64,000 nucleotides of DNA, taken from assembly GCF_058153355.1 (NCBI RefSeq), contig NZ_CM177019.1. One strand, given 5' to 3'. The notes under the pieces were generated by a model that was not told the DNA's origin, made no database searches, and saw only the letters and a list, made by a program, of their open reading frames with translations. The stretch's first letter is position 1. Each line of letters starts with the position of its first letter. A program made the position numbers and the translations under genes. Of this stretch, positions 15,313-38,194 are shown piece by piece.

Positions 15313-16028
15313 TTAAAGTCTTAATTGTCGATGACGAACCGTTAGCACGGGAGAACCTGCGCGTATTTTTGCAGGAGCAGAGTGATATTGAAATTGTCGG
15401 CGAGTGTTCAAACGCTGTAGAAGGGATCGGCGCGGTGCATAAACTGCGCCCGGACGTGCTGTTCCTCGATATCCAGATGCCGCGCATCAGTGGTCTGGAA
15501 ATGGTGGGAATGCTCGACCCGGAACATCGTCCGTATATCGTTTTTCTCACCGCGTTTGACGAATACGCCATTAAAGCCTTTGAAGAACATGCATTTGATT
15601 ATCTCCTGAAGCCAATTGATGAAGCGCGGCTGGAGAAAACGCTGGCGCGTTTGCGTCAGGAGCGCAGCAAGCAGGATGTTTCGCTGTTACCGGAAAATCA
15701 ACAGGCGCTGAAATTTATCCCTTGTACGGGGCATAGTCGGATTTATTTGCTGCAAATGAGAGATGTAGCATTTGTCAGCAGTCGGATGAGCGGTGTCTAC
15801 GTTACCAGCCACGAAGGGAAAGAAGGTTTTACCGAACTGACTTTGCGCACCCTGGAGAGCCGTACACCACTACTGCGCTGCCATCGTCAGTACCTGGTTA
15901 ACCTCGCGCATTTACAGGAGATTCGTCTGGAAGATAACGGCCAGGCCGAGTTGATTTTACGTAATGGCTTAACTGTTCCGGTCAGCCGCCGCTATCTGAA
16001 AAGTTTAAAAGAGGCGATTGGCCTGTAA
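15309..16028 (+). CDS. btsR: LytTR-family response regulator
   Basis: Receiver domain ([15 protein letters not shown]…DIQMP) plus C-terminal LytTR DNA-binding domain; overlaps the btsS stop by 4 nt. Confidence 0.9.
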
Positions 16029-16074
16029 AAGACTGCTAAAATGGTTTTTTGCCTCATCAACACCTGAAGGCCTC

Positions 16075-16545
16075 ATGCTAAGTAACGATATTCTGCGCAG
16101 CGTGCGCTACATTTTGAAAGCCAATAATAACGACTTGGTGCGCATTCTGGCGCTGGGTAATGTCGAAGCCACTGCGGAACAGATCGCCGTCTGGCTACGC
16201 AAAGAAGACGAAGAAGGGTTTCAGCGTTGTCCGGACATTGTTCTGTCTTCATTCCTGAATGGCCTGATTTATGAAAAACGTGGCAAGGATGAGTCAGCTC
16301 CGGCACTGGAGCCGGAACGTCGCATTAATAACAACATCGTGCTGAAAAAATTACGTATCGCGTTTTCGCTGAAAACTGATGATATTCTGGCGATCCTTAC
16401 CGAACAGCAGTTCCGCGTTTCGATGCCGGAAATTACGGCGATGATGCGTGCACCGGATCATAAAAACTTTCGTGAATGCGGCGATCAATTCATGCGTTAT
16501 TTTCTGCGTGGGCTGGCAGCGCGCCAGCATGTGAAGAAAAGCTAA
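16075..16545 (+). CDS. yehS: DUF1456-family protein
   Basis: 156-aa ORF; start at MLSNDILRSV… with GAAGG upstream. Confidence 0.8.
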   Translation: MLSNDILRSVRYILKANNNDLVRILALGNVEATAEQIAVWLRKEDEEGFQRCPDIVLSSFLNGLIYEKRGKDESAPALEPERRINNNIVLKKLRIAFSLKTDDILAILTEQQFRVSMPEITAMMRAPDHKNFRECGDQFMRYFLRGLAARQHVKKS

Positions 16546-16555
16546 GACGGGTATG

Positions 16556-16582
16556 GCGGCCATGCGAAGAACATGGCCGCCG
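16556..16582. terminator. Perfect 10-bp GC-rich hairpin between convergent yehS and yehR
   Basis: ggcggccatg-cgaagaa-catggccgcc. Confidence 0.4.
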
Positions 16583-16587
16583 ACAGA

Positions 16588-17049
16588 TTATTTCACTTCT
16601 TTAAAACCAGCGGCTTTCATCACCAGTTCCATTTGCGCCATAGTGATACCTTTTTTGGCATCTTCAGCAGAAACGTTGATACCTGAAATACCCTGCAGGG
16701 CTTTAAAATCAACTTTTTCCATATCGATAGTCACGTTTTCCTGAGCATAAGTATCGGTAAAGGTTAATTTTTCTTCAACGCCAGGGATGTTTTTATATTT
16801 GGCACTTAACGGCTCAAGTGTCTTGGCAGCATCTTCTTTGGTGGTTGCACCAATGGAAGCAAATTGAATTTTGGTTTCAGAAGATTGCTTAAGAACCTTG
16901 TCACCTTTGTAGACATAGGTAATAGCAATTTCAGTACCGTTCAGATTAGCGCTAAATTTCTTCGATTCTTCTTTGTCACCGCAGCCAGCAAGAGAGAAAA
17001 CCAGAACAGATGCAACAACAAGGGAAAACAGCTTATTGAAAGCCTTCAT
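16588..17049 (-). CDS. yehR: Lipoprotein (DUF1307 family)
   Basis: Lipoprotein signal peptide with lipobox (…VFSLAGCGDKEESKK). Confidence 0.8.
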   Translation of the reverse strand: MKAFNKLFSLVVASVLVFSLAGCGDKEESKKFSANLNGTEIAITYVYKGDKVLKQSSETKIQFASIGATTKEDAAKTLEPLSAKYKNIPGVEEKLTFTDTYAQENVTIDMEKVDFKALQGISGINVSAEDAKKGITMAQMELVMKAAGFKEVK

Positions 17050-17180: not shown

Positions 17181-19172
17181 TTACTCAAGCAAGGTTAATA
17201 ATTGTTCGCAAAGCAAAACGCAGTTATTCATTGCTTCTCCCCGTGCCTCGCCTTCTGTATTACGAAATTGTCCCAACACATGTGCCAGCCGATAAAAACC
17301 CATCGCGGTGAGTTCATTGACCAGCAACTCTGACTGACTAATGGCACTCTGTTCCTGATAGCGCCAGCCATTATGGAGCAGTTGAATAAGCAACGCCTGA
17401 CAGCGCATCAGTAACTGATGAGTGGTAGACGGTACAGGCAGAACGCTGGCAGAAGGTAGCGGTGCCACAGGCGCAGTTTCTGCGTCCAGCGCCCAGGCGC
17501 GGGTTTTTGTCATCATCACCCGTGGTTCCAGTGTCAATTGCCCCTCTACAAAACTGACAAAGCCAGAAACCAGACTCACGGGGTCGTCTGTTTGTTGTAA
17601 CAGAGCTGCCATGCGTTCAACGGCAAAAGGAGAACAGGCAGATGCCGGAAGGGATAACGTCAGCACATTATCGTCACCTTCGCCACTGATTACCTGCGCA
17701 TCCAGTGTCTGCCGACTGCTGTCCCAACCGAGTGAAATGCACTCTTCTACTGGCAGAATAAATAAGTTATCGACCTGGTTAAGCTGTCGTATGGCGGCTG
17801 GCGGACGTTGGCGTAAATATTCCCGCAAAGCCACAATGCCCGGCTGGCGCAGTGGTGCGCTCAACATTTGCCAGGCATCAGGCGACAGCGGAACAACACT
17901 GCTTAAGCGGTTGCGGGTAGCTAATAGCAACTCGCCATCAGCACTGCGTTTTGCTGCTTGTGAAACAATTTGCCCACCCGCCAGCGCGCCAGCCTGAAAA
18001 CTAAACAGCCGCCGTTTTGCCGCTGGAGAGTTATCCTGTTCACTTCTCGGCCAACTGCGCGAAAGATGCAAAATACTGCCGGTGTCGGGATCGGTGAACC
18101 AGATGCGTAAACCATACCGCTCATTATCCTGCCAGCAACGCATACCTAGTGACACCAGCCGCAAATGATCAAGCTTTGCTTCGCCAGCAATGCCTGCGCC
18201 AATGACCGTGCGCCACGGTATGGGCGGTACTTCACCGACACTGTCACGTCGCGCCATCTCTTGTGCACTGTTCAAGCGACTGGTTAACGCCGCAAGCTGG
18301 CACAAGCATTTTCCGGCATGATAGTAGCTGGCGCGGGCGTGGAAGGCATCAACGCTTGCCCGTAGCTGTCGTAGTGATTCACTTACCCAACGCCAGTTGC
18401 AGCGTTCCGCCGCTTGCTGCGCGCGGCTGAAAGCGGCCTCGTAGTGGATTGACGGTTGGCTGATGCCTCCCAGCCATAATGCCTGACTTAATTGCTGAAC
18501 ATATTGACGACATGCTTTACCTTCGTCGCTGGAAAACGGATCGTCAGATGATGTGACGTGTTCACTGTGCATCTGCCAGATCAAATGAGTAAATTCTGCT
18601 TGTTGATTTTTGGCCTCGACGAAGGCCTGCACAGCCAGTGCTACGTGTTCACACAGCGTTCCTTCAATACAATCACAACGGGCGAAACGAATGCTGCTGC
18701 GGGAATAAAAACGCACATCGCTCATCGGTAAGCGGGCAGAGGGAATTTCGCCCGGCGTGCAGAACAACTCAATGGTGATGCCTTTAGCGACCAGCGCCTG
18801 CGCGCGTTTGCGCGTGGTATTGGGCAGGGTAGCCAGTTCTTCCTGCCAGATTGCCGGATCCCACTCTTCTTCTTTTTCCGTAGGCTGGGCGGTGGCACAA
18901 AGTCGTTGATAACTTAACACCAGCATCACGCGATGACGGCACATGCCGCTGGCCCCGCAGCTGCATTGAGCCTCTTTCAGTGCCTGACTGTTCGCCAGCC
19001 GGGTACGGACACCGTCACTGAACGTGGCGATTAAAGCGCCGTTCTCATGGCAGATTTCCGGGACATTGCCATTTTCCAGTTCCTTAAGGCTGCGCTTCAC
19101 AAAACCAGCATTGCTTAACGCCGTCAGGGCCTGCGGTGTCAGTTCTAATAATTCCGGACGTAGTGAATTCAT
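17181..19172 (-). CDS. yehQ: SWIM zinc-finger protein with two CxC-x(n)-CxH motifs; last gene of the yehLMPQ operon
   Basis: Motifs CSCGASGMCRH and CDCIEGTLCEH. The start ATG overlaps the yehP stop as ATGA, so start is set at MNSLRPELL… (36th codon of the track ORF). Confidence 0.8.
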   Translation of the reverse strand: MNSLRPELLELTPQALTALSNAGFVKRSLKELENGNVPEICHENGALIATFSDGVRTRLANSQALKEAQCSCGASGMCRHRVMLVLSYQRLCATAQPTEKEEEWDPAIWQEELATLPNTTRKRAQALVAKGITIELFCTPGEIPSARLPMSDVRFYSRSSIRFARCDCIEGTLCEHVALAVQAFVEAKNQQAEFTHLIWQMHSEHVTSSDDPFSSDEGKACRQYVQQLSQALWLGGISQPSIHYEAAFSRAQQAAERCNWRWVSESLRQLRASVDAFHARASYYHAGKCLCQLAALTSRLNSAQEMARRDSVGEVPPIPWRTVIGAGIAGEAKLDHLRLVSLGMRCWQDNERYGLRIWFTDPDTGSILHLSRSWPRSEQDNSPAAKRRLFSFQAGALAGGQIVSQAAKRSADGELLLATRNRLSSVVPLSPDAWQMLSAPLRQPGIVALREYLRQRPPAAIRQLNQVDNLFILPVEECISLGWDSSRQTLDAQVISGEGDDNVLTLSLPASACSPFAVERMAALLQQTDDPVSLVSGFVSFVEGQLTLEPRVMMTKTRAWALDAETAPVAPLPSASVLPVPSTTHQLLMRCQALLIQLLHNGWRYQEQSAISQSELLVNELTAMGFYRLAHVLGQFRNTEGEARGEAMNNCVLLCEQLLTLLE

Positions 19173-20305
19173 GACTGAAGATTCTCCGCAAGCCAGGTAG
19201 CCAGTTCGCCCGGCGTCATTGCGGCTATTTGTGCGCCGACATTTACCAGCGCCTGGGCTGTATCGCGGTCGTAGCAAGGTGTTGCGGTGCTATCGAGCGC
19301 TGCCAGTCCCAGCACTTTGATGCCGCTCTGGACACACTTTTTCACCTGATGCGTCAGCAATGATGATGAACCCCCTTCATAAAAATCGCTCACGAGGATG
19401 ATGACGCTTTTCGCTGGTTGTTCAATAAGTTGCCGACCATATTCCACGGCGCTGGCGATATTGGTCCCGCCATCCAGCTGTACTTTCATTAATAACTCTA
19501 CCGGATCGGCAACGTCTGCCGTGAGATCGACGACGCTTGTGTCAAAAGCGACCAGATGGGTGCGGATACCGGGTAACTGCCATAAACAGGCCGCCATCAC
19601 CGCTGAGTGGATCACCGAATCGACCATTGAGCCGCTTTGATCAACCAGTAACACCAGCTGCCATTGTTCGCTATGGCGTTTAATTCGGCTGTTAAAGCGG
19701 GGGGATTCGATATACAACTTGCCGTGTTGCGGGTGCCAGTGTTGCAGGTTGGCGCGCAGAGTACTTTTGAAATCGAAATTACGTGCCAGTGGAATAAATG
19801 AGCGGCGACGGCGATCGCGGACACCTGAAAAAGCCTGACGAACTTCCTTTGCCAGTCGCGCCATAATTTCTTCAACAACCTGGCGCACTATCCGGCGGGC
19901 GGCAGCCAGCACTTCGGGATTCATCAGATGTTTGGTGTGCAAAACGGCGCGTAGCAGGCTTTCAGAAGGCTGCATACGCTCCAGCACGTCGAGATTCGTC
20001 ACCACATCTTCAATGCCGTAGCGCAGTACGGCATCGCTTTCCAGCCGCTCAATCACCCGTTGCGGAAATAGTGTGTGAATACTGTTGATCCACTCAGGGG
20101 TGGTGAGATTTGAGTCACCTAATCCACCGGAGCGTTCACCACGCTGGAGCCGTTCAGGATCGCGCCCATACAGCCACTCCAGCGCGTGGTCTATCTGCCG
20201 GGCATTGTCATCCAGCCCACAAAGCGTCGTTTCTGCCGCTTCGCCAAGAATTAATCGCCAGCGTTGTAGCTCACGAGTGGTCAGAAGATCGTTCAGTTCA
20301 GACAT
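19169..20305 (-). CDS. yehP: von Willebrand factor A domain protein with MIDAS motif
   Basis: DxSxS MIDAS motif (LLVDQSGSM); start at MSELNDLL…, 2 nt after the yehM stop. Confidence 0.8.
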   Translation of the reverse strand: MSELNDLLTTRELQRWRLILGEAAETTLCGLDDNARQIDHALEWLYGRDPERLQRGERSGGLGDSNLTTPEWINSIHTLFPQRVIERLESDAVLRYGIEDVVTNLDVLERMQPSESLLRAVLHTKHLMNPEVLAAARRIVRQVVEEIMARLAKEVRQAFSGVRDRRRRSFIPLARNFDFKSTLRANLQHWHPQHGKLYIESPRFNSRIKRHSEQWQLVLLVDQSGSMVDSVIHSAVMAACLWQLPGIRTHLVAFDTSVVDLTADVADPVELLMKVQLDGGTNIASAVEYGRQLIEQPAKSVIILVSDFYEGGSSSLLTHQVKKCVQSGIKVLGLAALDSTATPCYDRDTAQALVNVGAQIAAMTPGELATWLAENLQS

Positions 20306-22577
20306 GGAAAACTCCCCAGTGTTGCAGTGATGCCAGTGCCTGCTGTTCGAGTTGTTGATGATGTGCAATGGCTTGCGGTGGACAATGCAACGGCATTTGC
20401 AGCGCTGAAACGGGAAGCTGTGCGAGCTGGTAATGCTCAAGCACCTGATGCGCCAGCGTCCCGCGTTCTCGTGGTGGTAGCCAGGCCATCGCCGCGCGTA
20501 AATCGGGCAGGGCGTTAATAAAATCGTCGTCACTCAGTTGATTTAAATGACTACTGAAACCGGCGATAAATGCCGGCTGACAGGCCAGTTGATGGCGGGC
20601 CAGCGCCAGCAAACCGTGCAGCGCCTCGCCAGATTGTGCCGGGGATAATTGTGCCAGCATCGTCAGCGCCGCTTCGGCACTGGCGTTGGGATGTTCCAGA
20701 CGCATCAGCGCGCCAAGGGCCGCACCGCGATCCAGCGCTGGGGCATGAATCGCCTGACTGCGACGTTCCAGTAAGGCTACCGCCGCAGAAAGCGAAACGC
20801 CGGGTAAATTAACGCCGCTATTTAGATCGCGCAGGATATGGCAAAGCGCCTGCCAGCTATGCAGGTGAGCGTGAAACTCCTTCTCATCCGGCCTGCCGTT
20901 GGATTCACATAGCCACAGTGTGCGATCGATAGCCGCGTATAACGTCGTCTGTAATATCTGCGCGCCTTGCATACCGCTGATTTCATCGAGCTGCCACAAG
21001 GCGTAAAGCACTTCCAGCGCCTGGCCCATTTCGGCAAACTGATTTTCCTTGGCGATTAATAATGTGAGTTGTTCCAGTAATTGCTGACTGAAGGACGCCA
21101 GACCCGCTAACGCGGCCTGGCTAAGACATGTGGTGATGCCGCTGATTCCACCCGCGTCCAGCATATCGGCTTCTAATTTATTGCGTGCGGCCTCCTGGAG
21201 TGTGGCACCAAAGCAGGCGGCTTCAATCAATGCCGCATGTTGGCTAAGTGGCTGGGTTAATGTCCAGCGTTCTTCACCGTTGCCCGCCAGCGTCAGTGTA
21301 CTTCCTTGCTCGCGCACAATGCCGGGAATCTCCAGTATTACCAACTGATGTAGCACCTGACTTTGCGCCAGTCCATCGGGGGTAAAGCGATTTAAGGTAA
21401 GCTCCGCCGGAAGAGAGATTCCGGTACGTTCCAGTTCGTAGGTGACATCTTTTGGCAGAGGTGGCTGTGGCGTCGAGGGGGCAAGTTTACCGAATCCGTC
21501 ACCTGCTAATGTGTCTATCAACGTTACCAGTATCGGATCGGTATCGGGATGAATAACGTCGCGATAGCTCCACGGCAACGGCGCATTCAAGGCTTCTTTA
21601 ATCAGCGAGCCTGCTATGGCATCCAGCCAGTCAGTGCGTAACGGTAGTGTATGACCGCGCAACTGTGCCAGCGCCATCGCATGTAAATGAGCGGCAGCCA
21701 TATCCGCGGTTGAAGCAGGCAATTTGTGCTGGCGCAAACGGGTAAGAACCGTTTTTAGTAGTTGTTCACCTGCCTGCTGCAAGCCCCACCGCCAGCACCA
21801 GTTTTGCCAGACCGGGGCAGGCATTCCTGAAAGGTATCCTGCCAGCACATCAAGGCGCTTTTCACTGTATGGCGTGAGATAGCAACCTGTAACGGCATCA
21901 TCCTGTGAGAGCAATTCTGGCTTGTTAATTTCTTGCGGGCATTCGCGCCACATTTTTGCCAGTGCCGGAGCGTGCCAGCCTCCGCAGACGACTAATACGT
22001 CGCCATTATTTTGCTGCATCGCCCATGCAATCCAGCGGGCCATAAAGGCTTCGCGCTGACGATTGAGTGCATCGCCGGAGGCGTCGCCCCGCAGTTGTGC
22101 AAAATAGTGCGCCAGTGCAGAGGGTAATATAGTTTGCTGGCTTTCATCTTCGAACAAGTGATCCCACAAGGTGTCGCTGTTATCCATGCGGGTGGCACGC
22201 AGCAGAAAGGCCTGGCTTTCCTCTTGCATATCAGGCGAATCATCCTCTTCTTCACTTTGTGCCCAGCAAGGCAAATCGATGAAGTAAGTTTGTGCCTGAA
22301 TACGACGTGCGGCTTGTAGCGCCTGCCACTCCGGCGAAAATTCAGCAAATGGCGTCCAGGCACCACGCCCGGGGGCCGCACCGTCCTGATACTGGCAATA
22401 ACTGTAAATAGCTACCGGAAGCTGGTGGGCTAACAACAGTTCGTCTACCCGGTCATTAAAATCAGCCGGGCCTTCAATCAACACGTATCGTGGCCGCTGG
22501 CTTTCGATTAACGATTTCACCAGCCGGGCGCAGGCCGGACTATGATGCCGGATGCCGACAATTAACGGCTCGCTCAT
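20298..22577 (-). CDS. yehM: Large uncharacterised protein (759 aa) encoded between the MoxR ATPase and the vWA protein
   Basis: Start at MSEPLIVGIRHHSP…, 10 nt downstream of the yehL stop with GGAAAG upstream. I recognise no catalytic motif. Confidence 0.75.
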   Translation of the reverse strand: MSEPLIVGIRHHSPACARLVKSLIESQRPRYVLIEGPADFNDRVDELLLAHQLPVAIYSYCQYQDGAAPGRGAWTPFAEFSPEWQALQAARRIQAQTYFIDLPCWAQSEEEDDSPDMQEESQAFLLRATRMDNSDTLWDHLFEDESQQTILPSALAHYFAQLRGDASGDALNRQREAFMARWIAWAMQQNNGDVLVVCGGWHAPALAKMWRECPQEINKPELLSQDDAVTGCYLTPYSEKRLDVLAGYLSGMPAPVWQNWCWRWGLQQAGEQLLKTVLTRLRQHKLPASTADMAAAHLHAMALAQLRGHTLPLRTDWLDAIAGSLIKEALNAPLPWSYRDVIHPDTDPILVTLIDTLAGDGFGKLAPSTPQPPLPKDVTYELERTGISLPAELTLNRFTPDGLAQSQVLHQLVILEIPGIVREQGSTLTLAGNGEERWTLTQPLSQHAALIEAACFGATLQEAARNKLEADMLDAGGISGITTCLSQAALAGLASFSQQLLEQLTLLIAKENQFAEMGQALEVLYALWQLDEISGMQGAQILQTTLYAAIDRTLWLCESNGRPDEKEFHAHLHSWQALCHILRDLNSGVNLPGVSLSAAVALLERRSQAIHAPALDRGAALGALMRLEHPNASAEAALTMLAQLSPAQSGEALHGLLALARHQLACQPAFIAGFSSHLNQLSDDDFINALPDLRAAMAWLPPRERGTLAHQVLEHYQLAQLPVSALQMPLHCPPQAIAHHQQLEQQALASLQHWGVFHV

Positions 22578-22587
22578 GCATCTTTCC

Positions 22588-23676
22588 TCACGGCAGGCGG
22601 TGGCGAGCTTGATAATAAGCCTGCCAGTGAGCTTCTTTATGTGTAGCGACACGTTGTTCGAAGTAACGGCGCAGACGTGCGCGATCTTCTTCGTTATCTT
22701 TGACGATGGTTCCGGCAATACAGTCCACCAGGTCGGCTGGCTCCCCCGCGCGATTCGCTAAAAACCAGGCGCGGACGCCCACGGCGTGGGCCACGTTAAC
22801 GGCTTCAGCGGTGGACATAATCGCTGTAAGGGTATCCATTGACGTTTTCTTTTCGCCGTTGGCACGCAGATCGCGGAAGGTGCGTACCAGTAACTCAAGT
22901 ACCGCGTCAGGCACTTTATGCGGAATACCGCTATGGGCCAACAAACGCGCCGAAGCACTGGCGACCAGTTCCAGCTCCTGGGCGAAATCCATAATCGGAA
23001 AAACCGTTTCAAAATCGAATCGGCGTTTTAGTGCCGCGCTCATTTCATTAACGCCGCGATCGCGGGTATTGGCGGTGACAATAATATTAAAGCCTTCCCG
23101 CGCATAGAGCTGACTGGCTTCACCAGTGAGTTCCGGCACCGTCATAACCCTGTCAGAAAGCATACCTAACAGACAGTCTTGTACTTCCAGTGGTGTACGC
23201 GTTATCTCTTCAAAACGGACAATTTTGCCGTCGCGCATTCCCTGGTAGAGCGGGGCAGGGACCAGCGCTTCCGTTGACGGACCATGATTAATAAGCAGGG
23301 CGTAGTTCCAGCCGTACTTGATTTGATCTTCGGTGGTAGATGCGCCGCCCTGGATAGTTAACCCAGCATCGCCGCTAATAGCGGTTGCCAGTAATTCAGA
23401 CAGGAGAGATTTTGCGGTGCCAGGTTCCCCCACCAACATCAAACCGCGCCCGGTAGCAAGAGTGACTAACATGCGTTCGACAGCGGAGGGACTAATCACG
23501 ACTTTACGGCTGATATTTTGCGCGCTATCGCCAAGAATAAAAGAACGGGCCGCAGGCAAACTTAACTGCCAACCGGGCGGGCAAGGTGCGTTATCATTTT
23601 GCTTTAATTTTGCCAGTTCATCGGCGTATAACACAGCGGCAGGCGGACGCTGCAGATGATTATTCTGCGGTGACAT
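22588..23676 (-). CDS. yehL: MoxR-like AAA+ ATPase
   Basis: Walker A GEPGTAKS (codons at about 23407..23430); size and layout typical of MoxR/RavA-type ATPases that partner with vWA proteins. Confidence 0.85.
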   Translation of the reverse strand: MSPQNNHLQRPPAAVLYADELAKLKQNDNAPCPPGWQLSLPAARSFILGDSAQNISRKVVISPSAVERMLVTLATGRGLMLVGEPGTAKSLLSELLATAISGDAGLTIQGGASTTEDQIKYGWNYALLINHGPSTEALVPAPLYQGMRDGKIVRFEEITRTPLEVQDCLLGMLSDRVMTVPELTGEASQLYAREGFNIIVTANTRDRGVNEMSAALKRRFDFETVFPIMDFAQELELVASASARLLAHSGIPHKVPDAVLELLVRTFRDLRANGEKKTSMDTLTAIMSTAEAVNVAHAVGVRAWFLANRAGEPADLVDCIAGTIVKDNEEDRARLRRYFEQRVATHKEAHWQAYYQARHRLP

Positions 23677-23785: not shown

Positions 23786-23867
23786 ATAAAAAAACCTGCT
23801 GGTGAGGCAGGTTCTTTTATTTACTACTTTGACGATAACTTGCTGATTGTGCAACATTTCGTACCAA
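23786..23867 (-). ncRNA. orzO: Putative OrzO-like antisense sRNA (type I antitoxin), about 80 nt
   Basis: Minus-strand promoter (-35 TTGCAA, 17-bp spacer, perfect -10 TATAAT), an 18-nt 5' segment complementary to the zorO-like 5' UTR with one G-U wobble, and an intrinsic terminator. Transcript ends are inferred. Confidence 0.5.
23793..23813 (-). terminator. Rho-independent terminator (stronger on the minus strand)
   Basis: 7-bp stem aacctgc/gcaggtt with loop tggtgag, followed on the minus strand by TTTTTTTATTT. Confidence 0.6.
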
Positions 23868-24106: not shown

Positions 24107-24196
24107 ATGGACACGCTGACACAAAAGTCAACCGTGCTCATTGCCGTACTGGAGTTATTAGTGGCTCTGTTGCGGTTGATTGATTTGTTGAAGTAA
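24107..24196 (+). CDS. zorO: 29-aa hydrophobic peptide, type I toxin-like (ZorO/DinQ/TisB class)
   Basis: AAGGAG 5 nt upstream of ATG; translation MDTLTQKSTVLIAVLELLVALLRLIDLLK is a single amphipathic/TM helix resembling known type I toxins. Not in the supplied ORF track (below cutoff). Confidence 0.55.
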   Translation: MDTLTQKSTVLIAVLELLVALLRLIDLLK

Positions 24197-24249: not shown

Positions 24250-24570
24250 CTATTTTTCTATTTGTTGGATGAATATATTTTGTAGTTCACGATTAAAAAT
24301 TGCTATTACAGTTTTAGGTGATTCACCTCGTAATTTACGCTCATCAATAAATTCATCTCTTATATAAATCAACGCATCATTTATTAGCGGGTCGACATCT
24401 TCTCGATCACGTTGATGAAATGTTGGATGTAGCCGGAATCGCTCCAACCGGTAGACGGAACCAGTAAATAATTCAGAGCATTTATGGATCTCAAGTCTGA
24501 AGGAAAACGGATCTTCAGGTACAGGGACTTCATAATCATAAGTAGCGACCAGCTCTTTTTGCACGATCAT
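24250..24570 (-). CDS. yehK: Small uncharacterised protein (106 aa)
   Basis: Intact ORF 60 bp downstream of yehI on the same strand. Confidence 0.75.
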   Translation of the reverse strand: MIVQKELVATYDYEVPVPEDPFSFRLEIHKCSELFTGSVYRLERFRLHPTFHQRDREDVDPLINDALIYIRDEFIDERKLRGESPKTVIAIFNRELQNIFIQQIEK

Positions 24571-24630: not shown

Positions 24631-27600
24631 TTAATGGAAAATGACGTCAGGTGCGCTTAACGCTTCACTCAAATCAAACGTATCGAGTTCGGCAAAAGTG
24701 ACAGATTTATTGTCACGGTACACTCGAAGAGAACGGAAGCTCATTAGCGCTTTGCTATCAGCACTGTAGTGGTTAAAACCGGGTGAAAACTTAAGGACCA
24801 GCCGATACTCGCCCAGGTCATAGACACATGCGTCCTCAAAACCTGACTCCCAGCCTTTGTATCGCATTCCCATAAGTTGCCCAACGGTTGCGGATTTACC
24901 TTCCCAGCGAGTCAGGCTGTTACTGGCTGACTCGTCAGGTGTGAGCAGCACTGTGCGCCGCATCAACTGGCGAAAAGGCGGCATAATTTCGTAATCGGCA
25001 AAAACCTGTGCAAATTCACTGCGCATTTCTGCTGTCATTTCTAACGGGTGGGCAATGCCAATCAGAGCATCCGCAGGCAGGTCAATTGGCTCATCTTGTG
25101 CGTTGCAGAACTCCCCCTCAGCGGCCACGCGAAAGGCGTTGAGTAAACGACGCGGTTCATTTGCCGGATAAACCGCCCATATTAATCGCTGAGTAACCAG
25201 GCGAGTAAAGGGATGATTAACAAACAGAGAATGAAAATCTGCCAGCGACCAGCGTCGGGTGGTGCGTAGGGCAGTTTCAAGACGCGGGAGCAGGTTTTTG
25301 CTCACCTGAGTGGCATCTTTTTTTAGCCCTTTTAGTCGGGCCAGTGCCTCGGGTGCTTTCAGCTGATCGTCATCGGCGCGCAACCGGGGAACACTTTTCT
25401 GGCGAACGTTTTGCTGATCAAAGATAACCGGGTTGAGGTTTTCATCGAAGCGAACGGTAAACTGCCGGGGTCCAAAATCAAATATCAACGCCTGCGGATC
25501 ATCCAGGCCCAGTGTTGGGACTAATCTGTCCGCTAACTCTTCCTGGCTTAGTCCACGATTTTCTGCGACCACCTGAAGAAATTCCGCCGCGTTATCACGT
25601 AAGGGACGGGATTTCGCCCGTTGCGATATATGATGCAGCTGTATCAGCGCCATATCATTATTCATCAGGGTAAGTATGTTCAGGCCACTGACGGCGCGGG
25701 CAGATTTGCCTTCCTGTGGCCAGGCGAGGATCTGTGTTGTCAGATCCCGAGCCGTGCTTTCGTCACCAAAGAGACTTAACGCCAAAAAAGCCCAGTTGTC
25801 TTTTGCGGGGGCGCCAGCCTGTTGCCAGGCGGTGAAGAGATCCCAGGCAAAAGCGGCCAGCGTTTGTGGCTGGCAGAACGTTTTCAGTTGTTCCAGCCCA
25901 CAATAAAAACGTCCGCCCTGGGTAAAGCGCAGCATTTCGCCGATAATTTCCAGAGCATCATCAGTAACATGTTGATTATTCGTGATAATTCTCGGTCTGG
26001 ACCACATTGTCGGATGCCAGAAATCAGGGGCTTTGGGAATGCGTGCCGGGTAAATGTCCATTGGACCCTGTTTAAGTAATTGCTCCAGGGCAGGCCATAC
26101 ATCTGTATGCTGCCAGCGGTTTGCCACGGTTTGCAGTAATTCGCCATGCCCTTGTTCATACAGTAAACGCAGAGCGCTGAGTGCCGCTTCGCTGTTATCG
26201 CCAGACCTGGCAAAGATTAATGGGATCAGCGCCGTAGCCGTATGCTCCGGCCATTGTAAAATCCACTGGCGAGCCAGATTACGCTGGCCCGCAAAACGAT
26301 GCCAGACGCGGGCAACGGGCAGCGCCAGTTCTGTTGCGCCAAAATGAATCAGCAGCGGAAATATCTCTTTGGGATGTCGGGCAAAGGCGGTGATTAATCC
26401 GGGCAAAGCATCGGTACCCAGGACACTTAACAGATATTCTACCCCGGTGTAATGAAAATCAGCCGCGACAATTTGTTGCCAGCACGATACCGCCATTTCG
26501 CGCGGCATTTGCGCGATAAGATACAGGTTCCATACTCCCCAACGCTTTTCATCAGTGTAATTAAATTTGCGTTGGAAAGTTCGCCACCCCTCCATCAACG
26601 CAACACTATCTTGTGCCAGTAATGCGCTGGCGGCCTCTTCCCGGTAGTGTTTATTTTCATTCTGTTTTGCCTGATAATTGAGCAATCTTCCTACTGAAGT
26701 ATGTGTCTCTAGTTGATCGGTATCCAGAGCATCCAATTGTCCTTTGAGAATAAACTCATTAAACTTCCACCTGTGATCTTCAAAACCTAATTCCCGCAAG
26801 AAGGTATCCGCCCCTCTGTTAGCAAGACGTTCGTCAAAAGACATGGCGCTAAAATGGTCAATTGCAGTTTGCTGTTCCGGCGTCCAGTGTTTATTCGGCG
26901 ACCTGTACGCTTGCGGTACAAGCGTAAGTTCAGGTAGCGAAAAGTGAGTTATGGAAGCCTTTTTCCTGCCACGCCACGGTGGTGAAACGAGGATTTCAGG
27001 CAGACTACTGTTATCGGTGCTATCAATAACCGGTTTTGGCGAAGCCGATAAATAACTATTCACCACTGCCCGGGCTTGAGTACTTAACGACGGGATCACC
27101 TCTTCTGCCAGTTGTGGCTGCGATGCCATCAGCGTTTGTAACAGCGTACGCCAGTATTCATCACGTGCTTTTTGCTGTGCAGGCAGCTTTTTGTCTTCGA
27201 TGATAGGATAACCAGGGCGCGTAGGGGGGGCTTTTAACGCCAGTAGTTCTGCCAGTGCGGCGAGCGTCGCATGGGGAAAGTTTTTACTGTATTTAGCCAC
27301 ACGCTGCAGGCTGGGTTTGTTTTTATCGGCAACTAACAGCAAGATGCGAATAACTTGCGGATGGTTAATTTGTACCAGCAGGCTACCGCAATCTTCTTTA
27401 TGGGCATACATCGCGAGGCGTGGAACGGCTGCAATTCCTTGTTCGCGCAAAAGGGCGGCGCAGGCCGCGTAGCCGAAGTGGTTTTCATGCGACATGTAGC
27501 TGGCTTCGCGATCGCTAAATATATCCTGGCTCCAGTAGCGTTCGAGTTTTCTCACCGCTCTGGGGTCATTAGCAACAACTTTTAACCACTCCTTAGAATG

Positions 27601-28287
27601 AAAATGAGTCCGCGGGCATTCAAGGCCTACCAACTCATTGGCGATTTCTGGTTTCTCCGGGAGGATGAGTGCAATAAAAGGACGGCGAACTTGGGGTAGT
27701 CCTGGCAGTGCGGCAATGAGTTTGTCGGCGCAACGCTGCCAGCAGCTTTCCTCTGCCAGAGAGAGAGGCTTACGCAGTCGGAGATCGAATTCGTTATAGG
27801 TTTCTGAGCGATAACCATAACCATAGCCATAGTCCTCCTTCTGATACTGCAATGTTACTACCAGAGGATCGTTCTCATAACACCGCGCAATAAACTGGCG
27901 TGCAATCACCACCTCAGTCGCATATTCCAGCCCCTCTTGTTGGACGATTTCGTCGAGCAACTGTTGGCTGTCATTTTGCGCGATACAGGCTAGCGCCGCC
28001 ATTGTCCGGGCCGGAATTGAGGGTTTGTGCTCGCCGATCAAGTTGATGGCTTGCGTAATGGCCGACTGCCACTCCAGTGAAAAATTTTCATAACGCCAGA
28101 CAATGTTTTTTTTCTTCTCAGCAATGTGTAGCAATTTATCACCCAGTGTCTGGATGAGGCTTTCAGTGATAACAGGCACCGGTTCGCCCGGCCAATTGCG
28201 ATGGCTGAGTGGTGTTTTGCCTTTTTTATATTTCAGTTCCAGTTGGGCGTTATCCGCCAGCCACGGTAATTCCTTGTCCATGCTCAT
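24631..28287 (-). CDS. yehI: Very large DUF4132-family protein, paralog of the two upstream MolR-like ORFs but lacking their N-terminal WGR-like domain
   Basis: 1218-aa ORF; central and C-terminal regions align visibly with the two upstream paralogs (for example …DFGPRQFTV.FDE.L.P… and …FADYE..PPF.QL…). Start lies 3 nt after the upstream gene's stop. Confidence 0.8.
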   Translation of the reverse strand: MSMDKELPWLADNAQLELKYKKGKTPLSHRNWPGEPVPVITESLIQTLGDKLLHIAEKKKNIVWRYENFSLEWQSAITQAINLIGEHKPSIPARTMAALACIAQNDSQQLLDEIVQQEGLEYATEVVIARQFIARCYENDPLVVTLQYQKEDYGYGYGYRSETYNEFDLRLRKPLSLAEESCWQRCADKLIAALPGLPQVRRPFIALILPEKPEIANELVGLECPRTHFHSKEWLKVVANDPRAVRKLERYWSQDIFSDREASYMSHENHFGYAACAALLREQGIAAVPRLAMYAHKEDCGSLLVQINHPQVIRILLLVADKNKPSLQRVAKYSKNFPHATLAALAELLALKAPPTRPGYPIIEDKKLPAQQKARDEYWRTLLQTLMASQPQLAEEVIPSLSTQARAVVNSYLSASPKPVIDSTDNSSLPEILVSPPWRGRKKASITHFSLPELTLVPQAYRSPNKHWTPEQQTAIDHFSAMSFDERLANRGADTFLRELGFEDHRWKFNEFILKGQLDALDTDQLETHTSVGRLLNYQAKQNENKHYREEAASALLAQDSVALMEGWRTFQRKFNYTDEKRWGVWNLYLIAQMPREMAVSCWQQIVAADFHYTGVEYLLSVLGTDALPGLITAFARHPKEIFPLLIHFGATELALPVARVWHRFAGQRNLARQWILQWPEHTATALIPLIFARSGDNSEAALSALRLLYEQGHGELLQTVANRWQHTDVWPALEQLLKQGPMDIYPARIPKAPDFWHPTMWSRPRIITNNQHVTDDALEIIGEMLRFTQGGRFYCGLEQLKTFCQPQTLAAFAWDLFTAWQQAGAPAKDNWAFLALSLFGDESTARDLTTQILAWPQEGKSARAVSGLNILTLMNNDMALIQLHHISQRAKSRPLRDNAAEFLQVVAENRGLSQEELADRLVPTLGLDDPQALIFDFGPRQFTVRFDENLNPVIFDQQNVRQKSVPRLRADDDQLKAPEALARLKGLKKDATQVSKNLLPRLETALRTTRRWSLADFHSLFVNHPFTRLVTQRLIWAVYPANEPRRLLNAFRVAAEGEFCNAQDEPIDLPADALIGIAHPLEMTAEMRSEFAQVFADYEIMPPFRQLMRRTVLLTPDESASNSLTRWEGKSATVGQLMGMRYKGWESGFEDACVYDLGEYRLVLKFSPGFNHYSADSKALMSFRSLRVYRDNKSVTFAELDTFDLSEALSAPDVIFH

Positions 28288-28290
28288 TCC

Positions 28291-31200
28291 TTATTCAAAC
28301 AGGGCTTCGATGTCGTTAATTAACTCGCTAGCGGTGATGTCATCGAGTGCGGAGAACTGCGCTTCCTGTGTTGAATTAATCCCCCAGCCATAGCTTTCTG
28401 CTTTGCCTTCCCATAGCCACAGCTTGCTTAAGAGTTGCTCGGCACTGAGTTCGGCTGGCGACATACCAACTGCAAATCCTTCATCGATTTCCATGATTAA
28501 TGACCAGCGGCCCAGAGGTTTGATCATCCAGCCGATCCAGCCACCGTCCTGCGGTTCACCACGCATCCAGCCTTTATTCGCCAGCCCCATTACCCGACCG
28601 CTCGGGCATTTTCTGCCTGCCCAGCGGGTCAATTCGCTGGCATTGCGCTCGGTTTCTGTCAGGGCGTAACTGTTACGGTCGAGCTGGCGGAACGGCGGTA
28701 GCAGTTCGTAGTCGGCAAAAAGCTGACCAAAGGCGGCAGCATCCGTGGGTGATATTTCCAGAACGTGAGGAATGCCAACAGAGATATCGCCTTCCGGCAG
28801 GGTGAAAAGATCATCGTCAGCGGTGCTGTAGCTGTTATCTTCCGCCACACGGAAGCACGCCAGTAACTGGTTGTCTGCGCTATAAATGCCCCAAATCAGA
28901 CGGCGGGTTAAGTGGCAGACCAGCGGATGCTCAACCAGAAAGAGCTGAAAGTTTTCTGGCGACCAGCGGCGGCGCAGGCACATGGCGGATTCCAGCCTTG
29001 CCACCTGCTGGGCGGCAACGGTACGCGCATCTTTTTTCAGCAGTTTGTAGCGGTTAACTGCATCGTTCGCTTGAGTTTCATCATCGCTTTTGTTCGGTTT
29101 AGGCAAGTCTTTCAGGCGGCTGCCGGAAGCATCACGCACAAACGGTTTTAAGGTTTCATCAAAGCTGACGGTGAACTGCCGTGGCCCGAAATCCAGCAGC
29201 AGCGAACCGTTATCATCCAGACCGAGATCCGGTGCTAACCGGTCTTCAAGCTCCGCCACCGTGAGTTCGCGGCTCTCGGCAATGTCGGCAATTTTTTCTT
29301 TTGCCCGCTCCTGTAATGCTTTGAATTTCAGTTTCTGGGCGATGCCGTTAAGCTGCATCAGGGCGATATCACTACCGATAGCAGCGAGAATATCCAGCCC
29401 GACGGTGGCGCGTTTATGCTGGGATTCACCAGGCCAGGCGCGAATCAAAGGCGTCAGTTTGCGGGCGGTATCATCGTTGCCGAGAACACCTAACGCAGTG
29501 AACGCCCAGCTTTCTTTCGACGGTGCGCCAGCGGTCTGCCAGGCGGTAAACAGATCCCAGGCAAATTCAGCCAGTGAGTCGGCGGTACAGGCATCTTTCA
29601 CCTGCAATAACCCCGCATACAGAGCCTCTTCCTGAGGGAAGCGGAGCATTTCACCGAGGTGGAGGAGGGCGTTATCTGGCAGTGATTGGGCGTTTGCTTT
29701 TAATACCGGGCGTGTCCAGAGCGATGGCTGATAAAAGGCCGGAAGTGTCGGGATTTTAGTCGGGTGATTATCTAAGGGATCGAGCGCAAGTAGAGCGTTC
29801 ACCGCATCGGTTACTTCCGGCTGGTTATAACGCTGGGCGATTTCTTGCAGTAATGACGGATAACCACTTTCAATCAACATACGTAAGGCGGCGCGGGCGT
29901 TATCCTGGGCTTCACCAGCTTTGCCGAGTGCCGCAGGCAACAGGCCGATAATGGCATGTTCCGGATATTTCAGCAGCCAGGTGCGGGCGTCTTGTCGTAG
30001 AGTTTTGAGTTTGTTAAAGGCGCGGGCGACGGCAGGAGCCAGTTCCGTTGCGGCAAAATAATTAGCAACCGCAAAACCTTCTTGAGGGTAGCGTGAAAAC
30101 GAGTGTAGAAAACCACTCATACCTGCCAGTCGCAAATAAAGCATGACAGGTTTTACCGCGGTATGCGGCTCTTTGCTGAGAAACTCCCATAGTTTAATCG
30201 CTGTTTGCATAGGTAAAAAGGGAAGTGAGTTGAGATGCCACTCCCCCTGATACGGTGCATGGTGGGCTTTAAACATTTGGATGAGTGTAGCGAAGTCCTC
30301 ACGTTCCCATGCGTCAATTGCCGAGTCAGAAGCGCCGATATATTTATATGTGTCAAAATCCCAGCGGCGATACCCCAGCGAGTAAAGGAAATCTTTAGCA
30401 CCTTCACCTGGCTTATGCGATTCCCAGTCCCAATGAGTTTGAAACTCTTTTGCTTCTGTGTCGGTTATTGTGCATATGGATTTGAGTTTGAGCGGTGCTA
30501 AATCCAACACCGGAATCGTCGATTTTTTCTTTTTCGAAAGCCAGGGAGGTAAGACTAATACGGCTGGCAGTAGAGCGGCGCAGGCATGGTTTGACGGTTG
30601 TATCAGTTGTTGCTGGCATGATTTCAGCACTTCAACTGCGGCTGTCGAGAGCCAGGGAGTGACCTGTTCTGCCAGTGCCGGTTGCGAGATAAGCATCGTC
30701 ATTAGCATAATGCGCCAAGTATTCTCTTCTTTTTGCGCAAGAAGTTCCGCCAGTGCCGCCAGTGCTGCGTGTGGGAACGCAGCGCAAGCTTTCGTCATCC
30801 GATCGTGACAGCGTTTAGTTTGCCCGGCTACACGTATGAGCAGTGTTAATGCGAACGGATGATTGATATGACGCAATACATCTGCGCAGTAGTCACTTGC
30901 GGCATAGGGAGCAAATCTGGGCAGGGCTGCAACACCTTGCTCCTGTAATACGGTGGCTGACAATATCGCACCACAATAGTAATCATCAAAAATGGCATAT
31001 GGCTCGTGATATTTTTCTAATGAGGCAAGAATGTGCTCATCAGTCGCCACTATTTTTAGCCACTCAAGCGAGGGTAATTTTTTTTTCCCCAGTAGACGCT
31101 GGGCAATTTCATGTGCAATTTCTGGTTTTTCGGGTAATAACAAAGCAATTAATGGTTGCCGCCATTCTGGAATATGTGGAATTGCGGCAATAAGTTTTTG

Positions 31201-35889: not shown

Positions 35890-35996
35890 TCTGCATCCCT
35901 GTAATTTTATCCAGTTGAATGCAGATGCTACCAGTATTTATGCGGGTTAGAGAGAGACAAAATCGCAAGAAAACAACTTTAGGAATTTATAAAGAA

Positions 35997-38063: not shown

Positions 38064-38194
38064 AGTAGGCATTACTTCTTAATAGTGAAAAGGGGTTAGA
38101 TAGTACCAAATGGGAAAATGTTAAGTAAGTACTTCTCTATATTCTTCAGGTAAACTATCAGCTGATGGTTTATCTATACAAAAAAGGAGTCGGG

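Follow-up and report, generated by a model that had tools for sequence, protein, structure and literature searches.

The yehLMPQ operon of Escherichia lies within a conserved five-part MoxR-vWA cassette with predicted DNA-binding modules

What do the products of yehL, yehM, yehP and yehQ do? These four genes lie side by side on the minus strand of a 64,000-nucleotide stretch of Escherichia DNA (contig NZ_CM177019.1 of assembly GCF_058153355.1; hereafter, the window). A preliminary description, made from the letters alone, regarded them as a coupled operon with a possible role in nucleic-acid sensing or conflict with phages and plasmids. In the literature, we found no functional studies of yehL, yehM, yehP or yehQ, nor phenotypes for yehI and yehK, which agrees with the earlier claim that none of the four has an experimentally defined function; published mentions consist of deletion lists, an H-NS study, a zor/orz paper and the loss of yehM, yehL and zorO from Shigella sonnei lineages 2 and 3 (PMC12795559). 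The K-12 annotation reads "putative AAA(+) MoxR family ATPase YehL", "uncharacterized protein YehM", "VWA domain-containing protein YehP" and "SWIM zinc finger domains-containing protein YehQ", and the MoxR, vWA and SWIM identities of these proteins are already standard annotation. What has not been described previously, as far as the literature was searched, is the five-part cassette to which the genes belong and its breadth, a predicted TIKI-fold domain in DUF5682, a predicted tandem OB module in YehQ, and a tie to SOS-controlled WGR-DUF4132 genes. Here, we describe this cassette and suggest, tentatively and with somewhat less than even confidence, that it encodes an ATP-gated machine that engages DNA, has a hydrolase output and is used under genome stress.

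Operon structure and conservation of the cassette

The four genes are tightly packed, and their calls match those made by RefSeq in the nearest E. coli genome. yehL (22588-23676) encodes a MoxR-family AAA+ ATPase of the YehL subfamily (362 aa) and is separated from yehM (20298-22577; 759 aa, a DUF5682 protein) by a 10-nt gap, TGA GGAAAGATGC ATG, with a Shine-Dalgarno-like run, GGAAAG, inside the spacer. yehM and yehP (19169-20305; 378 aa) overlap by 8 nt, ATGTCTGA. The ATG of yehP (20305-20303) lies upstream of the TGA of yehM (20300-20298), with 2 nt between the two codons, and RefSeq annotates the same overlap. yehP and yehQ (17181-19172; 663 aa) are joined by an ATGA overlap. Thus, the L-M and P-Q junctions are as first described, and what had been taken for a 2-nt gap between yehM and yehP is really the 8-nt overlap. 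Such overlaps recur across phyla, at 28 of 34 M-P junctions and 30 of 35 P-Q junctions in loci with plausible start calls, the commonest value being -4. Terminator-like sites within the operon occur at chance level (13 versus 9.1 ± 2.9 expected from shuffled sequence). The four genes act as one translationally coupled unit, as had been proposed.

A search with YehM yielded 2263 representative clusters at 50% identity, and a scan of 100,044 one-per-species genomes yielded at least 563 matches. In 85 loci, open reading frames (ORFs) were called and classed with iterated hidden Markov models. Across these loci, the order DUF4132 (one to three or more copies)-MoxR-DUF5682-vWA-SWIM is nearly universal. 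MoxR is present in 84, the vWA gene in 83 (adjoining yehL, always two genes downstream), the SWIM gene in 81 and DUF4132 in 80, the DUF4132 genes always lying upstream of the motor genes in the same orientation. Linkage of the four genes thus extends far beyond E. coli; its absence would have counted against the earlier proposal. The cassette is found in Enterobacterales (Escherichia, Klebsiella, Intestinirhabdus, Erwinia, Serratia), Burkholderiales, Xanthomonadales, Neisseriales, Myxococcota and many Actinomycetota. Pfam-annotated contigs give the same picture (WGR+DUF4132 → AAA_5 → DUF5682 → VWA_CoxE → SWIM), and every Pfam-checked locus (Serratia fonticola, Variovorax, L005 and L006) has one or more DUF4132 proteins with a WGR domain. 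The unit was therefore drawn too small in the preliminary description, where the DUF4132 genes figured as "upstream paralogs"; they are an integral, conserved fifth component.

Identity between the proteins of the window and those of other clades is 63-98% for YehL (63% against actinobacteria), 55-98% for YehP, 38-91% for YehM, 27-89% for YehQ and 31-90% for DUF4132; as judged from these sequence comparisons, the cassette has a conserved engine and a variable periphery. Its neighbours are metG and yehR here, recJ in Variovorax, dnaG-rpoD in Comamonas and rpoH in Xanthomonadales. Because the surrounding genes differ between orders, the cassette is regarded as self-contained. No common neighbour outside the cassette, such as a client enzyme or cofactor pathway, was seen in Serratia, Variovorax, the metagenomic loci or 18 sampled genera.

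The motor components carry intact active sites, as had been claimed. In YehL, the MoxR-type Walker A motif (GEPGTAKS, residues 83-90), Walker B (E156, E157), N203 and R218/R219 are conserved at 95% or more among 83 homologues. YehL orthologues bear Pfam AAA_5, and the closest solved sequence in a PDB sequence search is that of the Midasin AAA domains (E = 2.7e-8). To our knowledge, E. coli has only two MoxR ATPases, YehL among them. Snider and Houry 2006, as cited in PMC3893208, distinguished seven MoxR subfamilies, one of which is named after YehL. YehP comprises an N-terminal region of ~200 aa followed by a CoxE-type vWA domain with a complete metal ion-dependent adhesion site (MIDAS). The DQSGS motif spans residues 222-226, and all five site residues (D222, S224, S226, T281, D307) are conserved at 95% or more among 85 homologues, which are uniformly 355-395 aa long with the vWA domain at the end. 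The VWA_CoxE assignment of YehP in the window rests on its orthologues in Serratia, Variovorax and two loci from metagenomes or metagenome-assembled genomes, which carry VWA_CoxE (PF05762) and VWA_2 in precomputed annotation. PDB sequence and profile searches gave no meaningful match for YehP. When all four proteins were scanned against NCBIfam, nothing exceeded the curated cut-offs, and only generic AAA and vWA likeness to GvpN, MadB, McrB and a cobaltochelatase model was seen (the last matching YehP with E = 0.0037).

Predicted folds of YehM and YehQ

YehM had been described as lacking any recognizable motif. This no longer holds, as the protein is covered by Pfam DUF5682 (E = 5e-96). An AlphaFold2 model built from 89 sequences (mean predicted local distance difference test, pLDDT, 93) divides it into an α/β domain of predicted TIKI/TraB/ChaN fold, with a parallel β-sheet core (residues ~1-260), and a largely helical remainder (~260-759) of HEAT/ARM-like repeats with some short β-strands. 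The predicted TIKI-like hydrolase domain (aa 1-260) is encoded at 21798-22577 on the minus strand. The three best structural matches in the PDB all belong to the TIKI superfamily, ChaN being the second best; Bcr-type esterase homologues, EreC and RRSP rank lower, and all of these proteins have been grouped in that superfamily (PMC6254334). Three invariant residues, H11, E35 and H202, follow model strands 5-9, 31-37 and 194-199 with TraB-like spacing, within the motifs G8-x-x-H11(H12) past strand 1, E35 ending strand 2 and G199-G-x-H202 past strand 194-199. Their order and spacing parallel those of the E. coli TraB-family protein YbaP (GSIH41 … E67 … GALH252), and also those of the 2His/2Glu catalytic site of RRSP (PMC6254334). 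R10, H51, E83, D101 and R175 are likewise invariant. YehM would thus share a core fold with TraB/PrgY/GumN, Tiki1/2, RRSP, erythromycin esterases, ChaN and HopBA1. It differs from these members in showing no detected profile similarity, in its extra invariant residues and in the 500-residue helical repeat fused to the domain, and a MoxR-vWA operon setting has not been described for the superfamily. The TIKI assignment, which comes from a predicted model, is made at the level of fold only.

A further clue to the role of YehM comes from gene fusions. A DUF5682-vWA fusion of 1180 aa was confirmed in a distant lineage (P0231 in L006, GCA_022841245.1), and several DUF5682 representatives are long (1120-1185 aa). 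Recurrent fusion of this kind argues, from sequence, for a physical complex of YehM and YehP. P0168, P0171, P0220, P0237 and P0267 are possible fusions that we left out of this evidence. The E. coli-derived "fusion" proteins P0001, P0004 and P0011 were rejected as assembly or frameshift artefacts, being single members with 94-95% identity. UniRef names two DUF5682 proteins (P0026 and P0044, from Intestinirhabdus and Erwinia) "4-aminobutyrate aminotransferase"; the name has no sequence support and is probably a propagated mis-annotation.

The two CxC-x(n)-CxH motifs previously noted in YehQ are both present, in the form CxC-x5-CxH. SWIM-1 (CSCGASGMCRH, aa 70-80) lies at 18933-18965 and SWIM-2 (CDCIEGTLCEH, aa 166-176) at 18645-18677, both on the minus strand. 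C70, C72, C78 and H80 of SWIM-1 are invariant in 76 of 76 homologues. SWIM-2 is kept in 37 of the 76, from proteobacteria and Myxococcota; its cysteines are lost in actinobacteria, and D167 is invariant. Run on the single YehQ sequence of the window, Pfam detects both fingers weakly (E = 0.0036 and 0.24). The YehQ model (pLDDT 92) also contains a helical bundle, a tandem OB-fold module at about residues 330-560 and C-terminal helices. Foldseek aligns YehQ over ~230 columns with the p202/AIM2 HIN domains, RPA70 DBD-A/B, LEF-3, CST and POT1, at probabilities of up to 1.0. The best of these matches, the HIN-200/RPA70-type proteins (AIM2, p202, RPA70 DBD-A/B, LEF-3, POT1), have probabilities of 0.97-1.0 and share 8-11% sequence identity with YehQ. 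Unlike in those binders, the OB module of the model has two SWIM fingers and helical bundles on its flanks. PDB sequence and profile searches with YehQ gave no meaningful match. The earlier idea of a nucleic-acid-binding module, which had been based on the SWIM motifs, thus gains a predicted tandem OB of HIN/RPA70 type together with the WGR domain of the linked DUF4132 proteins.

The DUF4132 array, its regulation and the setting of the locus

In the window, where the whole cassette spans 18.7 kb, three DUF4132 paralogs precede yehL on the minus strand. Paralog 1 (32092-35889; 1265 aa), the equivalent of molR or yehF-yehH, has an N-terminal WGR and a C-terminal DUF4132 domain (Pfam E = 3e-18 and 1e-50) with ~900 aa between them, and its WGR region matches PDB entry 2ra8_A (E = 2e-19). 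Paralog 2 (28291-32079; 1262 aa) likewise has WGR and DUF4132 and begins 12 nt past the end of paralog 1. Paralog 3 (24631-28287; 1218 aa), the yehI equivalent, begins 3 nt past the end of paralog 2 and has DUF4132 without WGR. Paralogs 1 and 2 are 44% identical, and paralog 3 is 32-37% identical to both. Copy number varies. The three-paralog array is covered at 80% or more in only 538 of 5426 E. coli genomes; in most, coverage is 57-63%, as two paralogs would give, and two is also the number in E. whittamii (L007).

A LexA box, AACTGGATAAAATTACAGGG, lies at 35897-35916 on the minus strand; its CTG-N10-CAG core (35899-35914) ends 9 nt before the ATG of paralog 1. It is the only match to at least 13 of 20 consensus positions in the window, and Klebsiella grimontii (L008) and Intestinirhabdus (L011) have the same box in the same position. 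A strict CTGT-N8-ACAG search misses this box, which reads CTGG…ACAG; the one strict match, inside yehQ at 17588, was dismissed as chance (1 found, 0.54 expected). A published list of genes whose SOS box is known includes molR (PMC6590174); its promoter is also activated by BglJ-RcsB (PMC3950696). In Deinococcus, mitomycin C induces both the DUF4132 protein DRA0166 and the WGR protein DR2173 via DdrO/IrrE (PMC8533742). The link to DNA damage is real for the DUF4132 genes of Enterobacteriaceae; for the engine, we make no such claim.

Between the array and yehL lies yehK (24250-24570, minus strand), a 106-aa ORF with no Pfam match. Among the 85 loci, a YehK homologue occurs only in Escherichia, and in Variovorax the same position is held by an unrelated 144-aa ORF. 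yehK is a lineage-specific accessory gene whose membership in the system is uncertain. The 573-nt gap between yehK and yehL houses a zorO/orzO type I toxin-antitoxin module, with OrzO-P antitoxin RNA at 23788-23861 on the minus strand (Rfam RF02083, 90.6 bits) and a 29-aa ZorO-like ORF, MDTLTQKSTVLIAVLELLVALLRLIDLLK, at 24107-24196 on the plus strand. The window has a single copy of zorO/orzO and strain EC42405 (L001) has two, whereas K-12 lacks the module. No convincing sigma-70 promoter is seen directly upstream of yehL; two 10/12 matches belong to the zorO/orzO module, which supplies the only strong promoter-like and terminator-like sites there.

In K-12 MG1655 (L088, 2192000-2216000), paralog 1 is split into yehF, a WGR fragment, and the pseudogene yehH, and YehQ stops at codon 615 at an in-frame nonsense codon, past which 49 conserved codons continue in frame. 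Given this degraded cassette, negative phenotypes in K-12 and the Keio collection say little about the intact system. The window is itself unusually far from typical E. coli. Its yehLMPQ is ~93% identical to 5337 records, no sequenced E. coli exceeds 98.1% identity to its metG (36030-38072), and the nearest genome for yehLMPQ is that of bovine strain EC42405, at 97.8%. By these sequence measures, the window represents a divergent Escherichia lineage.

Of 5426 complete E. coli genomes, 5353 (98.7%) carry the locus, at one fixed site between metG and yehR. Flanks are also kept within genera, in 21 of 21 pairs in Lentzea, 21 of 21 in Glycomyces and 6 of 6 in the Escherichia/Klebsiella/Intestinirhabdus group. 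Plasmid copies occur as well, on Streptomyces, Rhizobium and Sinorhizobium plasmids and on a 76-kb MOBP plasmid of Iodobacter fluviatilis, on which insertion sequence (IS) elements and a type I restriction-modification system flank it. Three PLSDB entries (H29-H31: NZ_CP141089.1, NZ_CP134663.1, NZ_OL790696.1) of 4.8-4.9 Mb are evidently chromosomes and inflate the plasmid-borne count. Several individual settings were also recorded. In Comamonas composti (L028, 2311-20371), the whole cassette sits between dnaG and rpoD, a conserved macromolecular-synthesis pair, and in Rhodanobacteraceae and Tahibacter (L018 and L032, ~15700-16650), rpoH lies directly downstream of the SWIM gene. L006 (GCA_022841245.1, 3227-23468) carries two tandem cassettes. 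The first has the DUF5682-vWA fusion and two DUF4132 genes; in front of the second, a 501-aa protein and a HEAT_2 protein take the place of DUF4132. Upstream is a gene with an ATP-dependent DNA ligase domain.

Known systems, rival explanations and a possible mechanism

How does the cassette compare with systems already described? In RavA-ViaA, CoxD-CoxE, NorQ-NorD and CbbQ-CbbO, too, the genes for a MoxR AAA+ ATPase and for a vWA protein with intact MIDAS lie next to each other and are transcribed together, and YehP is of the CoxE type. Unlike these chaperone pairs, the yeh cassette has no linked client, and DUF5682, SWIM/OB and WGR-DUF4132 proteins travel along with it as a mobile unit; its predicted nucleic-acid-binding modules are unprecedented among MoxR-vWA chaperones. 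The ternary systems of Kaur et al. 2020 (PMC7159879) similarly combine a MoxR-vWA core with extra conserved parts, include vWA proteins with a CoxE-like N-terminal helical region, are enriched in actinobacteria, Myxococcota and other large-genome bacteria, and pair a conserved engine with a variable periphery. However, the third components of the yeh cassette (DUF5682, SWIM/OB, WGR-DUF4132) include none of VMAP, iSTAND, FtsH or β-propeller. Going by the published description, these set the Kaur systems apart, and the layout of VMAP is the reverse of that of YehM, in which the α/β part is N-terminal and the helical part C-terminal. In addition, YehP lacks the variable effector domains fused C-terminally to the vWA components of the Kaur systems, and the yeh cassette, unlike those systems, is stably inherited and core in E. 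coli. The paper itself makes no mention of WGR or YehL, nor was SWIM counted there. The cassette therefore falls outside the four ternary classes, to which the preliminary description had alluded. Midasin/Rea1 also unites MoxR-type AAA domains, a MIDAS and long helical regions, which here are split over YehL, YehP and YehM, but it is a single chain of 4,700-4,900 residues with six AAA domains, acts on pre-60S particles via UBL ligands and lacks TIKI, SWIM, OB and WGR.

One alternative, which we regard as unlikely though still worth weighing, is that the cassette is an anti-phage or anti-plasmid abortive-infection system, in which DUF4132 and YehQ would sense the invader, the MoxR-vWA pair would impose an ATP threshold and the YehM hydrolase would be the toxic effector. 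Such a role would fit the MoxR-vWA "thresholding" logic of Kaur et al. 2020 (PMC7159879) and a patchy phyletic spread that, given the unusually high YehL identity between E. coli and actinobacteria, suggests horizontal transfer. The presumed sensors are fast-evolving, paralogous and copy-variable, the HIN-like tandem OB recalls the DNA sensors AIM2 and IFI16, yehL and yehM are silenced by H-NS/StpA (PMC3686432), and there are plasmid copies, including that of Iodobacter with its IS elements and restriction-modification system. Yet PADLOC (PADLOC-DB v2, E ≤ 0.01) has no model matching any of the seven proteins tested (YehL, YehM, YehP, YehQ, one DUF4132 paralog, YehK and YehR), and none of 60 flanking proteins from 18 genera is a genuine defence protein, the Iodobacter system being one counter-example to this lack of defence neighbours. 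Neighbour matches to MzaA, RT_UG29 and RTasDnaG-like models were discarded as RpoH (twice), RpoD and DnaG by NCBIfam, PADLOC having given the sigma factors the label MzaA and DnaG the label RT_UG29, and another as a generic subtilase. Presence in nearly all complete E. coli genomes at the single metG-yehR site, and conserved flanks within Lentzea, Glycomyces and the Escherichia/Klebsiella group, point to stable vertical inheritance rather than island turnover. YehP has no fused variable effectors, unlike its counterparts in the Kaur systems. YehM relatives are essentially absent from 50,697 phage records, the one hit being a doubtful contig. This hit (H43; MT835988.1, 10602-12770) is a full-length relative at 25% identity. 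The 14-kb contig, from human faeces, is labelled "Bacteriophage sp." and has no annotation; it could be a mis-binned bacterial contig, or the hit could represent a distant branch of the family. Near-identical PHROG families exist (phrog_30700, 33984, 31592, 29006, 20839, 36602, 28101 and 36295; full length, up to ~1600 bits), but we do not accept them as proof of phage origin, since they resemble host DNA in prophage calls and phage genomes lack these genes. Taken together, the PADLOC result, the defence-free neighbourhoods, the near-fixation in E. coli, the within-genus synteny and the near-absence from phages count against a classical defence role, and none of these tests supports the conflict role first proposed.

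It is also conceivable, but distinctly improbable in our view, that the cassette assembles a cofactor or metal centre in the manner of CoxD-CoxE, NorQ-NorD, CbbQ-CbbO or the class I chelatases, with DUF4132 or an unlinked enzyme as client; the ChaN-like domain of YehM would then bind a metal or tetrapyrrole rather than hydrolyse a substrate. Every experimentally understood MoxR-vWA pair is a maturation or remodelling chaperone (PMC3893208; PMC7159879), YehP falls in VWA_CoxE and weakly matches the cobaltochelatase model, haem-binding ChaN is the second-best structural match of YehM, the three-part size pattern with a large subunit of ~1250 aa is like that of CobS/CobT/CobN, and the locus behaves as a stable, core-like one set among housekeeping genes. 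On the other hand, the contexts examined contain no linked client, unlike the cox, nor, cbb and bch/cob loci, and no tetrapyrrole genes. DUF4132 shows no similarity to CobN or BchH of the class I chelatases (BchI/BchD/BchH; CobS/CobT/CobN), the PDB search giving the WGR match alone. WGR, SWIM and tandem OB have no precedent in metal-centre assembly, and the invariant His/Glu/His of YehM suits the hydrolytic TIKI members better than ChaN. Control of molR by SOS and BglJ-RcsB is unexpected for a cofactor pathway, and in Deinococcus, molybdenum-metabolism genes do not co-change with the DUF4132 and WGR genes (PMC8533742). The same control of molR, from a dedicated promoter, would fit a regulatory module, in which the WGR-DUF4132 proteins are DNA-binding transcription factors switched by MoxR-vWA-YehM-YehQ through remodelling or clipping. 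In the literature, DNA binding by "bacterial MolR-like TFs" is ascribed to their WGR domain (PMC7824862), the DUF4132 genes are always upstream of and co-oriented with the motor genes, and a TIKI-type endopeptidase could, by analogy with the action of RRSP and Tiki1 on signalling proteins, process a regulator. But proteins of 1200-1400 aa in up to three or more paralogs would be atypical transcription factors, paralog 3 (YehI) lacks WGR, neither a regulon nor a DNA motif is known, and the K-12 copy is a pseudogene for which no regulatory defect has been reported. We consider this explanation very unlikely.

How might an ATP-gated, DNA-engaging machine work? Starting from the gene linkage, the intact motifs, the predicted folds and the LexA box, we infer a complex that may bind DNA and hydrolyse a substrate, with signalling in the direction outlined here. 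YehL, whose motifs are intact and extremely conserved, would form an ATP-hydrolysing ring. The MIDAS of YehP may grip an acidic residue of a partner and pass on the stroke of the ATPase, by analogy with RavA-ViaA, CoxD-CoxE, CbbQ-CbbO and Midasin. YehM would be attached to YehP, as the DUF5682-vWA fusions and overlapping genes suggest, and would provide a helical scaffold together with a TIKI/TraB-fold domain as the catalytic output; the invariant His/Glu/His residues of this domain would cut a peptide or ester bond in a putative substrate. YehQ, with its SWIM fingers and predicted tandem OB, and the WGR domains may put the complex on DNA or sense DNA structure. The fast-evolving, copy-variable DUF4132 proteins would be sensors or clients remodelled by the motor. 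Of the settings considered, we find it most likely that the cassette responds to genome stress, be it DNA damage or aberrant DNA, rather than being a classical mobile anti-phage island. In Escherichia, Klebsiella and Intestinirhabdus, the first DUF4132 gene has a LexA box. A more specific version, which we think clearly improbable as it stands, is a previously unrecognized kind of genome-surveillance machine, in which a MoxR-vWA motor is led to damaged or foreign DNA by PARP-like WGR and HIN/RPA-like OB modules, and a TIKI-type protease cuts DNA-bound protein.

Several observations weigh against the DNA-stress reading. The structural matches of YehQ have modest TM-scores (0.37-0.41, target-normalized), and OB and SWIM folds serve protein-protein contacts too. 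For YehM, hhalign comparison of the N-terminal profile with a YbaP/TraB profile gave a probability of 0.6% (E = 0.089), although the TraB profile was so shallow (14 sequences, at least 65% identical) that this value is no firm negative, and PDB profile searches returned nothing meaningful and no TIKI member; ChaN and HopBA1 illustrate, moreover, that the TIKI fold is not always a hydrolase. The window has no LexA box before yehL, and the zorO/orzO insertion and a terminator split the SOS-controlled DUF4132 genes from yehL. Outside Enterobacteriaceae, in beta-proteobacteria, Xanthomonadales and actinobacteria, lineage-appropriate LexA boxes are not enriched upstream of the cassette (observed versus expected: E. 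coli type, 4 versus 3.65; actinobacterial TCGAAC-N4-GTTCGA, 0 versus 2.5; Xanthomonad type, 0 versus 0.05), so the SOS link is lineage-specific. The damage-induced Deinococcus genes stand alone, outside any cassette, and yehL and yehM have been reported to be H-NS/StpA-repressed rather than SOS-induced (PMC3686432). Finally, our literature search found no biochemical or genetic data on any component of the cassette.

YehL, the namesake of a MoxR subfamily without a function in the literature searched, can now be placed in a five-component cassette present in at least several hundred species of three phyla. Four "y-genes" thereby become a defined system that combines a predicted hydrolase with predicted DNA-binding modules of two kinds and a copy-variable partner under SOS control. 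For functional work, intact alleles, such as those of the window, are preferable to K-12. If the cassette does act in defence, it would be a new immune system within the E. coli core genome. If it is a surveillance machine, it could clear DNA-protein crosslinks or stalled nucleoprotein complexes in the SOS response, or execute an immune response, and would be a functional analogue, built from unrelated parts, of eukaryotic p97-SPRTN or AIM2-type pathways. And if the DNA-stress reading that we favour is correct, the SOS response would gain a new, ATP-dependent component.

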